Shown here: piece after piece, positions 54,084-61,987 of the stretch | Layout: every line of letters starts with the position of its first letter | How positions within the stretch are numbered: position 1 is the stretch's first letter | Origin: a virus | Taxonomy: Duplodnaviria > Caudoviricetes | DNA length: 64,000 bases | Virus record (IMG/VR): IMGVR_UViG_3300031965_000023 | Coordinates: 1,362 to 65,361 of that record | Strand: one strand, 5' to 3' | The notes under the pieces: model-generated | The model's input: the letters and a program-made list of their open reading frames with translations, nothing else | What the model was told of the DNA's origin: nothing | Database searches by the model: none | Translations under genes and position numbers: made by a program

Positions 54084-54151
54084 TAGCTCCACCGGGAGTC
54101 GAACCCGGCTAGGAAAGGTTATGAGCCTTCCGGATCCCGGATCATGGAGCG
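54084..54151 (-). tRNA. tRNA-Met(CAT)-like with truncated D-arm
   Basis: GAAGG-CTCATAA-CCTTT; canonical T-arm; C1/U72 mismatch; 68 nt. Confidence 0.65.
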
Positions 54152-56998: not shown

Positions 56999-57196
56999 TT
57001 AAGATTTTGCTTTGAAGAATCCACCAACAGCGCTCAGGATTAAACTTGCAGCAAGACCCTGCCAAAAATTAATGATCGGCAGATTAAAAATGCCATGCAA
57101 TAGCATATTCCATGCCCACATGATAATCACACCAGAGAGCGCGTATAGTCCCAAGACAAGGAGAATCCCGCCTGCTAACACAAAAATATGAATCAT
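56999..57196 (-). CDS. small membrane protein
   Basis: Two TM helices. Confidence 0.5.
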   Translation of the reverse strand: MIHIFVLAGGILLVLGLYALSGVIIMWAWNMLLHGIFNLPIINFWQGLAASLILSAVGGFFKAKS

Positions 57197-57209
57197 TTCT
57201 TTCCTTTCA

Positions 57210-57284
57210 TGGAGCCGAACCGGGGTCTCGAACCCCGAATTGCTGATTACAAGTCAGCGGGTATGCCGGTTTACCTAGATCGGC
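57210..57284 (-). tRNA. tRNA-Thr(TGT)
   Basis: GCTGA-CTTGTAA-TCAGC; CCA. Confidence 0.9.
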
Positions 57285-57290
57285 AAGTAC

Positions 57291-57431
57291 GTGCGATGTT
57301 ATATCTTGTGCTAGGTGATTCTCTTGAGGCCCAAAGAAGAGCACCGCGAGTCAGCGTTTTCCTCTTATAACTCTGATTATTCGCGCCAGCTACGGCAGAT
57401 ATCAACAGAGGATATATCGTTCTCATCGCAC
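57291..57431 (-). ncRNA. unassigned structured RNA, copy B
   Basis: Closing helix GTGCGATG/CATCGCAC, then AGAACGA, helix TATAT/ATATA; shares motifs with 58574-58690. Confidence 0.72.
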
Positions 57432-57435
57432 TTAT

Positions 57436-57512
57436 TGGTAGCGCCTATGGGGCTTGAACCCACTAAGACGGGATTGAAAGTCCCGGTGCTCGACCACTTT
57501 GCATTAGGCGCT
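57436..57512 (-). tRNA. tRNA-Glu(TTC)
   Basis: CGGGA-CTTTCAA-TCCCG; CCA. Confidence 0.9.
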
Positions 57513-57519
57513 ATTTGTA

Positions 57520-57792
57520 TCACGACTTTTTTGTTTCTTTCTTAACCCGCACAAATTTATAACTGTTACTGTCATACACAAACCCAAGAGCAGATGCCAA
57601 CTGATGAAGCATCTGACGTAGTTCCCAGGAATTATCAACCAGCACCGGGGAAGGATTCATGGGGAGAAGGACTTCTACTTTTTGTGCAGTAAAGTGGCCG
57701 TCATACACGTACCCTAGTGCGCGGTATAATGCTTCTACTTTATTCACTGCGCTTACTGCCCTCTGTAAATCTGTTTTTTCATACCTGTTCAT
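57520..57792 (-). CDS. hypothetical protein
   Basis: 90 aa with RBS. Confidence 0.5.
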   Translation of the reverse strand: MNRYEKTDLQRAVSAVNKVEALYRALGYVYDGHFTAQKVEVLLPMNPSPVLVDNSWELRQMLHQLASALGFVYDSNSYKFVRVKKETKKS

Positions 57793-57811
57793 CTCTTTTC
57801 CTTTCTTTATA

Positions 57812-57886
57812 TTGCCCTACCGGGCCTCGAACCCGGAACCTCTCCATTATAAGTGAAGTGCTCTTTCCAAGTTGAGCTATAGGGCG
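57812..57886 (-). tRNA. tRNA-Ile(TAT), C1/A72 mismatch, no CCA
   Basis: CTTCA-CTTATAA-TGGAG; CGCCCTA/TAGGGCA. Confidence 0.85.
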
Positions 57887-57889
57887 GGG

Positions 57890-58117
57890 CTATCTTTCAC
57901 TCTCGGGAGTGAGCAAAAGTTCATTTAGAAATTCTCTAATCTCTGGTTCCAATGGCAAATCTAAACAATACTGTATATGATTGTCTTCGATATTACAGTC
58001 TGCTAATACAATGTGTGCATTACTAAATTGTGCTTCTGGGAATTTATCGTTGAAGTCTTCAATCTTATCATATGTAGACTGTTTTAATACACCACCATCT
58101 ACACACCCTTGACACAT
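57890..58117 (-). CDS. hypothetical protein
   Basis: 75 aa; MCQGC. Confidence 0.5.
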   Translation of the reverse strand: MCQGCVDGGVLKQSTYDKIEDFNDKFPEAQFSNAHIVLADCNIEDNHIQYCLDLPLEPEIREFLNELLLTPESER

Positions 58118-58138
58118 AGTTCCTCCATTATATTTCTG

Positions 58139-58210
58139 CTCCGGGGCTAGGATTCGAACCTAAATTCACGGGGTCAAGGCCCGTTTTCCTGCCTATTAGA
58201 AGACCCCGGA
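58139..58210 (-). tRNA. tRNA-Gln(TTG), C33, no CCA
   Basis: ACGGG-CCTTGAC-CCCGT; TCCGGGG/CCCCGGA. Confidence 0.85.
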
Positions 58211-58211
58211 A

Positions 58212-58286
58212 TGGCACAGACCGTAGGAATCGAACCCACCCACAAACGTTTGGAGCGTCTATCGCCACCTTGGGACATGGGCCTGC
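58212..58286 (-). tRNA. tRNA-Trp(CCA)
   Basis: AGACG-CTCCAAA-CGTTT; CCA end. Confidence 0.85.
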
Positions 58287-58475
58287 TTAAGCCATTAACG
58301 GTTGAGTTTTATCAGGCACTACAATAGTATACTTTCCCCACTCTAGTTCTAGAATCGAATCATTTTCTAAATGAAATTCAATTTTATCCCCAGACTGGAT
58401 TAGTGTGCATTCGCCTTTTATAACTTTCGTCCCCTCGGTGTGGGAAGGGTGGATGCTAACAATTACTTCTGTCAT
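58287..58475 (-). CDS. hypothetical protein
   Basis: Start at MTEVIVS. Confidence 0.4.
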   Translation of the reverse strand: MTEVIVSIHPSHTEGTKVIKGECTLIQSGDKIEFHLENDSILELEWGKYTIVVPDKTQPLMA

Positions 58476-58489
58476 TCTTTCCTTTCTTT

Positions 58490-58562
58490 TGGACCGGATG
58501 GGAATCGAACCCACCGCAGATTACTTGCAAGGCATTCTCGCCTCCTTGGTACATGCCAGCCC
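58490..58562 (-). tRNA. tRNA-Ala(TGC), no CCA
   Basis: G3.U70 identity pair; loop CTTGCAA. Confidence 0.85.
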
Positions 58563-58573
58563 AGAATATAAGA

Positions 58574-58690
58574 TGGAGTGTTATGGTTTGAGCCAGATGA
58601 TTAAATAGGATTCCTGGCGCTCCGTTTCCCCTGCTATGCCTATTTCAGACCGGACGGACGAGCTTCAGAGGCCATATCGTTCTCACTCCA
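58574..58690 (-). ncRNA. unassigned structured RNA, copy A
   Basis: Closing helix TGGAGTG/CACTCCA, then AGAACGA, helix TATGG/CCATA, internal helix AAATAGG/CCTATTT. Confidence 0.72.
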
Positions 58691-58693
58691 ATT

Positions 58694-58778
58694 TGGTGCC
58701 AGCGGCAGGATTCGAACCTACTCACCCGAAAGACCTGTTTTACAGACAGGCGCAACTCTCCCGCGTTACCGCGCTGGC
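58694..58778 (-). tRNA. tRNA-Tyr(GTA)
   Basis: CCTGT-CTGTAAA-ACAGG; long variable arm; CCA. Confidence 0.92.
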
Positions 58779-58781
58779 GTG

Positions 58782-58871
58782 CGGAGGGTGTAGGATTCGA
58801 ACCCACATAGCGTGGTATTAGCACGCTCTCCCGTTTTCGAGACGTTGAGCTACGCCGGTAGCAGACCCTCC
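58782..58871 (-). tRNA. tRNA-Ser(CGA), no CCA
   Basis: GGAGGGT/ACCCTCC, G73, long variable arm; anticodon stem has two A.G mismatches. Confidence 0.8.
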
Positions 58872-59138: not shown

Positions 59139-59930
59139 TCATAGTCCTCGGCATTTATATCCGTAGAGCAGGATTTGTTCTACTAGATGTTCTGGTGGAC
59201 GCTCTTGAAGTGTTGAATGTTTGAAACTATCTTCCGCAGCCTTTATTAACTGATTGGCCTCCTGATGGACCTGTTCGAGTGTCCATTCCCCCCGCTTGAT
59301 GGCTTTAAGTCGTTCAGCATCATATCGGTACACAATACAAACATTCGTGTTCAGAAACTCAATTGCCATTCTCATGAGACGGATAAGATGGGCTGCGTTT
59401 TTCGTGTCATACCCAAATTGCTCTACAAGTGCTTTCCGCTTGGCCCCCATATATCCTTGATGGGCGTTATGTGTCATTTTGTACAGTTGACCTTTGGCAT
59501 AACCCATGAATGAATGATATACTTGTTTGGAGATAAATACATCCCTCTGCGCAATTAAACTCCGCATAGGTTCTGCGTCTGAGAGATACATATCTTCAGG
59601 ACGCAAGTATAGGGTTCCAATTACATTAGGGTTCGACTTCATCAGAAGCCGGATATATTTATTCCACGAATACACGACACAATCAATCTCTTCTACCTTC
59701 ATTGTCCCATGGTCGAATTGACGAAGCCCAAGAATACGTTCACGGGGTGGGATGACGATTGCCATGAAATCAACATCATCAATCCCAGTCGGGTCAACAG
59801 GAGGGATATACGTTCCATGACTATGACTTCCGACACGGAAAAGAGCGGCAAGGTGAGGGGTTAATGAAAAGTTTTCCTGTTTTCTCCAAAGAAGGTCAAG
59901 GCGTGGAAGGTAGTCTTGCACTTGTCTCAT
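59139..59930 (-). CDS. Pol-beta superfamily nucleotidyltransferase (PF10127 RlaP/YcgL-like)
   Basis: RVGSHSHG, DDVDF, KSNPNVI..L, YDTKNAAHLIRL, IKRGEW. Confidence 0.8.
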   Translation of the reverse strand: MRQVQDYLPRLDLLWRKQENFSLTPHLAALFRVGSHSHGTYIPPVDPTGIDDVDFMAIVIPPRERILGLRQFDHGTMKVEEIDCVVYSWNKYIRLLMKSNPNVIGTLYLRPEDMYLSDAEPMRSLIAQRDVFISKQVYHSFMGYAKGQLYKMTHNAHQGYMGAKRKALVEQFGYDTKNAAHLIRLMRMAIEFLNTNVCIVYRYDAERLKAIKRGEWTLEQVHQEANQLIKAAEDSFKHSTLQERPPEHLVEQILLYGYKCRGL

Positions 59931-59931
59931 C

Positions 59932-60327
59932 TTACCTCCATCGATCTCTCGGGTGCATCAAAAATTCAAAATGTGGATACTTATCTTCTGGATAAGGAAT
60001 TTCAAGATGAGGACAGATATGAATAAATTTCGTTTCTAGAGTGATAGTTTCATACCGAATTGGAAACTTTTGAACAAACCATTGAGGCATGCATTCACTC
60101 TTGAACATCTGCCACCAATCACGAGGCCGAAGAATAGTTTGGTGCTCAGAATGAATCTTGTTCCCCGCAAAATATCCTGTTACTTGCAGAATAAATTCAT
60201 CCACCATATCTTTCATTTCAAATTTAAGTTGCCGAGAAAATGTACCCCGAAGATAAAATGGGATTTTTTCTGCACGAAAAGATGCTAAGTTACTGAATAA
60301 CATTTCCGTCTTTGTCTCGATTCCCAC
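59932..60327 (-). CDS. hypothetical protein
   Basis: 131 aa. Confidence 0.5.
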   Translation of the reverse strand: MGIETKTEMLFSNLASFRAEKIPFYLRGTFSRQLKFEMKDMVDEFILQVTGYFAGNKIHSEHQTILRPRDWWQMFKSECMPQWFVQKFPIRYETITLETKFIHICPHLEIPYPEDKYPHFEFLMHPRDRWR

Positions 60328-60982
60328 CCTTGTACTCCTTGTCTCCCTCCACCGTCGCCTTAAATAGTGCTTGGCTGGCTTTGTGGTAAATCACGATGCC
60401 TTCAGGGTTCATATAGCCAGGAACAGCAGCAGACCCTCGTTCTCTCAAATCATTGAGGACTAGCGGAGGCATAAAATTTCCCGCCGCCTCATTGATCCAT
60501 GGTCCTTCGTACAGGACAGGAACAGCATCTACATTATGAAGTTGACCGAGAATCCATGCAGTCTCTAGGCCATTCTCTTTTCCTCCCCTCCCCCACCGAG
60601 CCGTATTGAAAAGTGAAAACCGCCGCTCTGCAAGTCCATATCCTCGATTGATCCCTACCCCCCACCATTCACCAAAATGAAGACCGGGACCAAGAGCTTC
60701 AGCAAGTTTCTCTCTATTCTGCTCTACCCACGCAGCGAATCCATAATTATCATCGTGTGGACTGATCACTCGGGTGCGGCTCTGGGCATAGACTCGTCCA
60801 TCTTCTGTAACGCCAATCGCTGCATTTGTTCCATCAATTTTCTCGGTGATCACGATGTCTCGATTAAAACGAGAGATTTTGCCGAATTCACTAAAGGGAG
60901 GGGATCCAGCAATATACTGCCGGTGTGTTTGTTCCATCGCTTCTCTAGCTACTCGTTTCGCTTCTTTCCGGTTGGGGTCCAT
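60290..60982 (-). CDS. ATP-dependent RNA ligase (Rnl2-like nucleotidyltransferase domain)
   Basis: Motif I TEKIDGTN, SRTR, FGEW, FSLF, PVLYEG, PEGIV, FKA. Confidence 0.88.
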   Translation of the reverse strand: MDPNRKEAKRVAREAMEQTHRQYIAGSPPFSEFGKISRFNRDIVITEKIDGTNAAIGVTEDGRVYAQSRTRVISPHDDNYGFAAWVEQNREKLAEALGPGLHFGEWWGVGINRGYGLAERRFSLFNTARWGRGGKENGLETAWILGQLHNVDAVPVLYEGPWINEAAGNFMPPLVLNDLRERGSAAVPGYMNPEGIVIYHKASQALFKATVEGDKEYKGGNRDKDGNVIQ

Positions 60983-61544
60983 ACGCTTCCTTTCTTATTG
61001 TTTGAATCATTTTTGTGAATGCTAGTGCCGATGCTCGCGCATCTCCGAGTGCTTCATGAGTACCGTTCTCTCGGGTAGGTGCAACCTTATAGTATCCAAA
61101 AACTAAATCACCGCTCACACCTTTTAGATTCAAGAGACCGGCATACCGGAGAGCGACGGCGAGCCCTTGTGTACAAACAACGCGGTGAGAGAAGTGGTAC
61201 TTGGCGTTAGCGAGCCGGTATAATCTCTGGAGGAAGGCAACATCGAATTGTACGTTGTGACCGCCTAGCTCGACTTGTCCGCGCATGTCGTTATTGAGAA
61301 GGAAGTTCTCTAGAGCCTGTACAGCAGCAACAGGGTTGACTCCTGCAAGTTCATGTTCTTTAATGTTGATCCCGTTCACTTTAAGTGCTTGTTCTTCTGC
61401 AACAATTGTTGGTTCTGTGATTTTAATCTCGATCTCATCAACCACAAATCCATCTGCCCAGACAACTGCACCGAGCGAGAGGATACTGTGTTTGGTCGGG
61501 TCGAGCCCTCCCGTTTCGCAATCGATAAAAAGAATTTTATTCAC
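60945..61544 (-). CDS. DEDDh 3'-5' exonuclease (DnaQ/RNase T-like)
   Basis: FIDCETGGLD, GHNVQFDVAFL, HEALGDA; GTG start behind GGAGG. Confidence 0.85.
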   Translation of the reverse strand: MNKILFIDCETGGLDPTKHSILSLGAVVWADGFVVDEIEIKITEPTIVAEEQALKVNGINIKEHELAGVNPVAAVQALENFLLNNDMRGQVELGGHNVQFDVAFLQRLYRLANAKYHFSHRVVCTQGLAVALRYAGLLNLKGVSGDLVFGYYKVAPTRENGTHEALGDARASALAFTKMIQTIRKEAYGPQPERSETSS

Positions 61545-61987
61545 TAAACCTCCCCCGTTTCTATCATCTTTCGAAGTCGTGTAGCGCGTGGGCCAACCTG
61601 TGTTGCCCACTTTGAGTCCATCATCTCAATCCCTGCTTTGCTCCAAGCCTCTTGATTTACCGCTGCAATAAACTTTTTGAATCCAGCGAGACGATTACCG
61701 AGGTTGAAAGCCATATTTACTAGCGCACGTATGCGCGTTTCTTGGCCTGGATAATTCTTCATTTCGAGAAAAAGTCGGGAAACAATGTCTTCTGCAACAT
61801 TTATATCTGATTCAAGAAGGGCCATTGCTTCACTCTGAGTAATTTTTGTCATTCGCTCTTCCGCGCCAAGAAGATGACCCACCCCAATCGTCCAGAGTCC
61901 GACGGTATCTTTATAAGGTACTAGACAAATACCTTCATCACGTATTAATTCTTCTTTCAATTTACTCCGATTTATCACTATTCTCAT
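61544..61987 (-). CDS. phage lysozyme (GH24, T4-like)
   Basis: ELIRDEG...YKDTVG.WTIGVGH (E-x8-D-x5-T triad), LVNMAFNLG. Confidence 0.92.
   Translation of the reverse strand: MRIVINRSKLKEELIRDEGICLVPYKDTVGLWTIGVGHLLGAEERMTKITQSEAMALLESDINVAEDIVSRLFLEMKNYPGQETRIRALVNMAFNLGNRLAGFKKFIAAVNQEAWSKAGIEMMDSKWATQVGPRATRLRKMIETGEV

Follow-up and report, generated by a model that had tools for sequence, protein, structure and literature searches.

Two candidate paralogous RNAs of an orphan family in the tRNA array of an uncultured phage

The transfer RNA (tRNA) array of an uncultured phage (Duplodnaviria; Caudoviricetes; IMG/VR virus record IMGVR_UViG_3300031965_000023) contains two intergenic elements, of 117 and 141 nucleotides (nt), which we term copy A and copy B. 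Their presence raises the question of whether they are RNAs in their own right, and if so of what kind, or are instead spacers, relics or DNA-level features of the array. We examined them within a window of 64,000 nt, which is the whole stretch of DNA analysed and corresponds to bases 1362–65361 of a record of 65,361 base pairs (bp) that is rated complete by CheckV. Judged from their sequences, copies A and B look like genuine paralogous non-coding RNAs, uncatalogued and so far forming an orphan family.

Helices, conserved blocks and compensatory changes

Both elements lie on the minus strand, and in each the termini are joined by a helix (P1) that is followed inward by an asymmetric loop, a second helix (P2) and two further helices (P3 and P4). 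A first-pass annotation of this DNA had described their coordinates, strand, P1, the asymmetric loop (J1/2), P2 and conserved blocks, all of which we recovered letter for letter on reading the minus strand. The features of the two copies are the following:

58574–58690, minus strand: copy A RNA, 117 nt (sequence reading; matched by covariance model R1, see below)
58684–58690 with 58574–58580, minus strand: copy A P1, joining the termini, 7 Watson-Crick bp (UGGAGUG / CACUCCA)
58677–58683, minus strand: copy A J1/2, AGAACGA, facing a single A at 58581
58672–58676 with 58582–58586, minus strand: copy A P2, 5 bp (UAUGG / CCAUA)
58666–58671 with 58628–58633, minus strand: copy A P3 (CCUCUG / CAGGGG), then J3/4, AAACG, at 58623–58627
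58590–58593 with 58619–58622, minus strand: copy A P4 (GCUC, inside the 3' block / GAGC)
58587–58602, minus strand: copy A 3' conserved block, AAUCAUCUGGCUCAAA (pattern match)
57291–57431, minus strand: copy B RNA, 141 nt (sequence reading; source of model R1)
57424–57431 with 57291–57298, minus strand: copy B P1, joining the termini, 8 Watson-Crick bp (GUGCGAUG / CAUCGCAC)
57417–57423, minus strand: copy B J1/2, AGAACGA, facing a single A at 57299
57412–57416 with 57300–57304, minus strand: copy B P2, 5 bp (UAUAU / AUAUA)
57407–57411 with 57361–57365, minus strand: copy B P3 (CCUCU / AGAGG), then AAAACG at 57355–57360
57308–57312 with 57340–57344, minus strand: copy B P4 (AGCAC, inside the 3' block / GUGCU)
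57305–57320, minus strand: copy B 3' conserved block, AAUCACCUAGCACAAG (pattern match)

The paralogy of the two elements is indicated first by a covariance model for which copy B was the only input (model R1, with the four helices P1–P4), which found copy A with a score of 39.6 bits and an expectation value (E) of 4.5e-8, as its sole match in the 64-kb window at E ≤ 10. In a structure-guided alignment of the two copies, 95.7% of the pair cells over 23 shared base pairs hold standard pairs, and six of those 23 pairs differ at both positions with pairing kept (three in P1, two in P2 and one in P4). The changes in P2, from copy A to copy B, are GC to AU and GC to UA, while that in P4 is A-U to U-A. 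When the 3' partners were slid by one to three columns as a control, the number of double-change pairs fell to 0–1 and pairing to 31–52%. Shuffled spacers formed a perfect terminal helix as long as that observed in 1.1% (copy A) and 0.26% (copy B) of cases. Five pairs of P3 are common to both copies, with zero double changes; the only wobble change (U-G in copy A, U-A in copy B) lies in this helix and agrees with the tRNA strand. RNAalifold yields the same P1–P4 from an alignment that was itself fitted to the structure, and hence adds no independent support.

Sequence conservation between the copies amounts to 65% identity across 91 alignable columns and is concentrated in blocks that stand beside unalignable stretches. 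Within the 5' block, 18 of 20 nt are identical and the two differing positions are the compensated positions of P2; the AGAACGA of J1/2, the same in both copies, is contained within a 12-nt identical run (UGAGAACGAUAU). Each copy contains the sequences CCUCUG, GG(G/A)AAACG and AAUCAYCURGCWCAAR, which are found nowhere else in the window, and exact matches to the 5' block GAGAACGAUAU and to the 3' block AAUCAYCURGCWCAAR likewise occur at the two copies only, in 64 kb. As far as two sequences can be read, this block-wise identity is a pattern of selection and not one of uniform decay. The AUCACCU of copy B coincides with the 3'-end heptamer of 16S ribosomal RNA; it is mismatched in copy A, and a 7-mer identity is within chance. 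The first-pass reading of the elements as a paralogous pair of structured RNAs that are not tRNAs, and whose P1 and P2 carry compensatory changes, is supported.

Searches for relatives and comparison with T4 rnaC and rnaD

Searches with cmscan against Rfam, covering the whole window at the gathering score and positions 57150–58800 at E ≤ 10, matched only tRNAs, in line with the first-pass view that their family is an unrecognised one. Membership among the tRNAs themselves (RF00005 / clan CL00001) was rejected, with no ARAGORN call on either copy and no match to the clan at E ≤ 10. The known self-cleaving ribozymes (hammerhead, hepatitis delta virus (HDV)-like, twister, twister-sister, pistol, hatchet and hairpin) gave no cmscan match in 57150–58800 at E ≤ 10, and GOLLD, ROOL, Drum, RAGATH and other phage- or tRNA-associated Rfam motifs were also unmatched.

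Two of the known systems share features with copies A and B. Bacterial and phage Y RNAs (YrlA), the partners of Ro60/Rsr and often encoded beside rtcB, pair their two ends in a stem that is joined to a structured module, and this phage also carries RtcB and other RNA-repair genes; unlike them, copies A and B have no T-arm-like module and no match to the Rfam Y RNA or YrlA models. The TROVE/Ro60 domain (PF05731) is absent from the phage, in a test for which control genomes were positive, and DUF2828 (PF11443) was not found in the phage, in a test made weak by a control that was also negative. A Y RNA system was rejected on the lack of a Ro60 gene and of an Rfam match. HDV-like 'theta' ribozymes occur downstream of some phage tRNAs, and they too are structured RNAs directly 3' of a phage tRNA; copies A and B differ from them in having no HDV-like fold or Rfam match and in a closing helix that joins the termini, unlike the HDV topology.

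Searches for homologues by sequence were equally negative. Neither copy had a blastn match (word size 11) in 50,697 GenBank phage records, and megablast of the 1.65-kb region against GenBank phages returned nothing. Exact-pattern scans of IMG/VR with four patterns combining the conserved blocks produced either no match or chance matches within coding sequence. The JGI metagenomes and the GTDB genomes, scanned once each, gave 42 loci, all of which we attribute to chance and most of which are coding. The 90-amino-acid open reading frame (ORF) adjoining copy B has no relative in IMG/VR. A second covariance model, built from both copies (model R2), found nothing in ten viral records searched in full, each about 60 kb long. 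When R2, a helix-plus-motif descriptor and a fuzzy motif were applied to 80 IMG/VR loci with a gene for the nucleotidyltransferase RlaP, which is also encoded beside the array described here, only the copies in the window matched. In these records and loci, the search with a model of both copies for homologues showing covariation found none outside the window.

The one weak R2 match among those loci, at L110:11192–11294 (14.3 bits, E 2.6), lacks P1 and starts within the 3'-terminal part of an ORF. In this unrelated phage, 13 nt at L110:11197–11209 are identical to the 5' block (AUGAGAACGAUAU) and fall at the 3' terminus of an ORF that lies downstream of RlaP. We rejected this locus as a homologue and regard it as a chance match, given that it has neither P1 nor the 3' block.

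Several other RlaP-carrying phages (L086:16974–17102, L137:1720–1853, L074, L125 and L128) have inter-tRNA spacers of 85–270 nt with strong closing helices. That of L086 has a UCGCGAG/CUCGCGA closing helix together with a T-arm-like CCAGG-AUUUGAA-CCUGG, and that of L137 is closed by GAUGUUUG/CAAACAUC. These spacers are unrelated in sequence to the family of copies A and B.

The best match of the phage's RlaP other than to itself is 57% identical, among 5.8 billion protein clusters, and by this measure the lineage appears almost unsampled. Because the lineage is so sparsely sampled, the missing homologues are weak evidence against a function, yet they cap what can be claimed for one.

Since the work on T4, the tRNA clusters of phages have been known to encode small stable RNAs, and to our knowledge none of these RNAs has an assigned function. 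In T4, rnaD (species 2) is 119 nt long and starts one base after tRNA-Arg, and rnaC (species 1), of 139 nt, follows six bases on. Like copies A and B (117 and 141 nt), these are small non-tRNA RNAs that adjoin tRNAs in a phage tRNA cluster and share their strand, and they are of closely similar size. Their structures are different: rnaC has a tRNA-like T-arm (of the GGUUCGAAUCC type) in its 3' domain and a long 5' hairpin, whereas copies A and B lack a T-arm, and rnaD has an invariant CCGGGUCGCUACCGG hairpin and a 3' end that closes on an internal strand, whereas copies A and B have no such hairpin.

We compared the families with models in both directions. Model R2 had no match at E ≤ 10 in the T4 tRNA region (L013, which includes rnaC). 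A covariance model of seven T-even rnaD sequences (model R3, from T4, VR20, RB14, p000v, ECO4, SP1 and JS98, down to 77% identity), in which AAGAAAC, the CCGGGUCGCUACCGG hairpin, GUCGUCGGACUGA and CACAGCAGAAACGGCGCAC are conserved, matched neither copy at E ≤ 10, even when run unfiltered. Membership in the rnaD family was rejected on the failure of R3 and R2 alike, and membership in the rnaC family on the lack of a T-arm, of a tRNA-clan match at E ≤ 10 and of an R2 match. A UGAGAA at the 5' side and a CAG..GAAACGG.GC.CC pattern are shared with the T4 RNAs in a different topology, and we treat them as coincidence. The likeness to T4 RNAs C and D that the first-pass annotation had drawn is consequently one of place and size, an analogy by position and not membership; homology was not found.

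The rnaD gene of T4 (L013:2054–2172) has homologues in 735 GenBank records of T-even type, where it often bears the label 'hypothetical protein'. The two ends of the RNA and the T-arm-like CCGGGUCGCUACCGG hairpin are invariant, while the central hairpin has been replaced outright in ECO4, SP1 and JS98. No family was reported by Rfam for the T4 rnaD stretch in the counterpart searches made here.

Genomic setting

From about 53 to 64 kb of the window all tRNAs and ORFs are on the minus strand, and the array itself consists of tRNAs alternating with small ORFs that bear AAAGGAA-type ribosome-binding sites. Minus-strand genes alongside it encode a lysozyme, a PF00929 exonuclease, a PF09414 RNA ligase, an unknown ORF and a PF10127 RlaP. 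Genes for RtcB and a CCA-adding enzyme are also present in the phage, away from the array. The features closest to the two copies are:

59139–61610, minus strand: RNase T-like exonuclease (PF00929), RNA ligase (PF09414) and RlaP nucleotidyltransferase (PF10127) genes, directly upstream of the tRNA array
58694–58778, minus strand: tRNA-Tyr(GUA), CCA-ending, 3 nt upstream of copy A (ARAGORN)
58490–58562, minus strand: non-canonical tRNA-Ala(UGC)-like gene, 11 nt downstream of copy A (ARAGORN, relaxed threshold only)
57436–57512, minus strand: tRNA-Glu(UUC), CCA-ending, 4 nt upstream of copy B (ARAGORN)
57210–57284, minus strand: tRNA-Thr(UGU), 6 nt downstream of copy B (ARAGORN and Rfam)

The genes at 59139–61610 bear out a separate earlier claim that the phage has a second RNA-repair cluster. 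With respect to the flanking tRNAs named in the first-pass annotation, ARAGORN confirms Tyr, Glu and Thr. The supposed tRNA-Ala does not stand as an ordinary tRNA: it was called by ARAGORN at a relaxed threshold and not by default, and the Rfam tRNA model does not match it. Its acceptor stem and T-arm are good, while the D-arm is aberrant and the anticodon stem weak.

The linkers between the upstream CCA and the elements are AAU and AUAA, made of A and U only. An element of this kind occupies two tRNA junctions in the array; the remaining junctions are spacers of 1–23 nt or small ORFs. A scan for promoters and terminators gave nothing exceeding background.

Two further genes of the window drew our attention. 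At 54085–54150 (minus strand) ARAGORN calls a tRNA-Met that is unusually short (66 nt) with the anticodon at position 28, and that the Rfam tRNA model at the gathering score does not report. At 14636–14763 (minus strand), between tRNA-Arg and tRNA-Asp near rtcB, lies a third non-tRNA RNA of about 128 nt, in which a long irregular helix is enclosed by an acceptor-like stem and a T-like arm; the layout resembles that of T4 rnaC. This RNA is unmatched by models R1 and R2, which places it outside the family of copies A and B.

The favoured reading and its alternatives

We consider it somewhat more probable than the sum of the alternatives (roughly 0.55) that copies A and B are small stable RNAs that are cut from a tRNA precursor and adopt a specific protein-binding fold. 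We infer for them transcription, processing, stability and protein binding, as follows. The two copies would be transcribed from the minus strand within the polycistronic array of tRNAs and small ORFs. RNase P would cut the 5' end of the downstream tRNA and so free the 3' side of the element, and the 3–4-nt A/U linker after the upstream CCA would be removed by an endonuclease cut and trimming. The products would be RNAs of about 120–150 nt with both ends protected in the 7–8-bp P1, beyond which would lie the 7-nt/1-nt asymmetric loop, the 5-bp P2 and a multi-helix junction. The invariant unpaired AGAACGA, AAACG and AAUCAYCU might build a specific tertiary fold or binding surface, and the RNAs, small and stable, would most likely bind protein and act in trans, as members of the general kind to which T4 rnaC and rnaD belong. 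The placement of the copies, 3–4 nt after a CCA and 6–11 nt before the next tRNA gene, had been taken to suggest release by tRNA processing, and is compatible with it.

Several observations weigh against this reading. Only two sequences are known, with no homologue in any collection searched. The folding energies are no better than those of shuffled sequences (z of −0.06 for copy A and −1.38 for copy B), and the common fold lies 3–5 kcal/mol above the minimum of each copy. P3 is without covariation, and P4 has a rival hairpin that uses the same conserved bases (GCCAGG/UCUGGC in copy A, UUGGG/CCUAG in copy B). The absence of the RNA from all 80 RlaP loci, finally, argues against a dedicated partnership between RlaP and the RNA.

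These points bear differently on the parts of the fold. P1 and P2 are solid and P3 is plausible, while the inner architecture (P4/P5), known from two sequences, is ambiguous; a search for a conserved pseudoknot found no pairing of the invariant loops with other regions that the two copies share. Since no homologue was found there are only two sequences, and R-scape-type statistics are therefore impossible. Of the 'signature of a functional non-coding RNA' that had been claimed for the locus, the compensatory changes stand, while the signature as a whole rests on two sequences with ambiguous inner helices.

The alternative that survives best, although we think it clearly less likely than the favoured reading, is that the elements are structured spacers acting in cis, as folding insulators or landing sites for processing nucleases that aid maturation of the flanking tRNAs and are then degraded. 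Their position between a CCA end 3–4 nt away and a tRNA gene 6–11 nt further on would suit such a role, as would their modest thermodynamic stability and the presence next to one of them of a non-canonical tRNA-like gene that might need help. An insulator hairpin, however, needs no 12-nt and 16-nt unpaired blocks of conserved sequence, and only two junctions of the array carry the element, the others managing with 1–23-nt spacers or small ORFs.

It is rather unlikely that copies A and B are functionless, decaying relics, derived from an old duplicated spacer or a pseudo-tRNA segment and retaining residual similarity. That the family is an orphan, that its stability is unexceptional and that the array has other aberrant tRNA-like genes would all fit such an origin, but neutral decay would not let five double substitutions accumulate in P1 and P2 with every pair intact, nor fix 18 of 20 positions beside unalignable stretches, and neither copy retains a tRNA signal at E ≤ 10.

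We regard as quite improbable a new class of self-cleaving ribozyme that would cut at or near its own ends and so free the neighbouring tRNAs. The position immediately after tRNA 3' ends is what one would look for, and the elements share with small ribozymes a core of several helices surrounded by invariant junction nucleotides; against this, no Rfam ribozyme matches at E ≤ 10, paired 5' and 3' ends are at odds with the HDV double pseudoknot, and on sequence inspection the UGAGAA stretch misses the hammerhead core at two essential positions.

Least credible of all is that the elements encode a short peptide, from the AUG/GUG of (A/G)UGAGAACG, or have a role at the level of DNA, as a recombination site or a miniature mobile element with inverted repeats. 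Terminal inverted repeats and a 51-codon frame in copy B (57426–57271) could be cited for this. Against it, the terminal repeats are unlike between the copies and have no target-site duplication, the copy B frame enters tRNA-Thr, the 3' conserved block is out of a shared frame, and the lack of a phage-type ribosome-binding site (AAAGGAA) together with a copy A frame that ends after 13 codons means that the elements are not coding, so that both the coding and the mobile-element readings were rejected.

A more far-reaching reading would make the two copies the founders of a new class of phage RNA with a specific task in the conflict over tRNAs, as a decoy or sponge for a defence nuclease, a guide or cofactor in RNA repair, or a new self-cleaving ribozyme; we think this rather unlikely. 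Were the decoy variant true, the RNAs would act as a sponge for a host defence nuclease that targets tRNAs; were the guide or cofactor variant true, they would be partners of the set formed by the exonuclease, RNA ligase, RlaP, RtcB and CCA-adding enzyme. The roles of nuclease decoy, protein binder and ribozyme put forward in the first-pass annotation are guesses.

Taken alone the case is weak material: it comprises two copies in one uncultured phage, and no homologues from which covariation could be assessed statistically. Copies A and B are a new sequence family of a long-known kind. As such they add an independent sequence family with T4-like placement and strengthen the view of phage tRNA arrays as a general home for structured RNAs, which may be tied to tRNA-directed defence and RNA repair.

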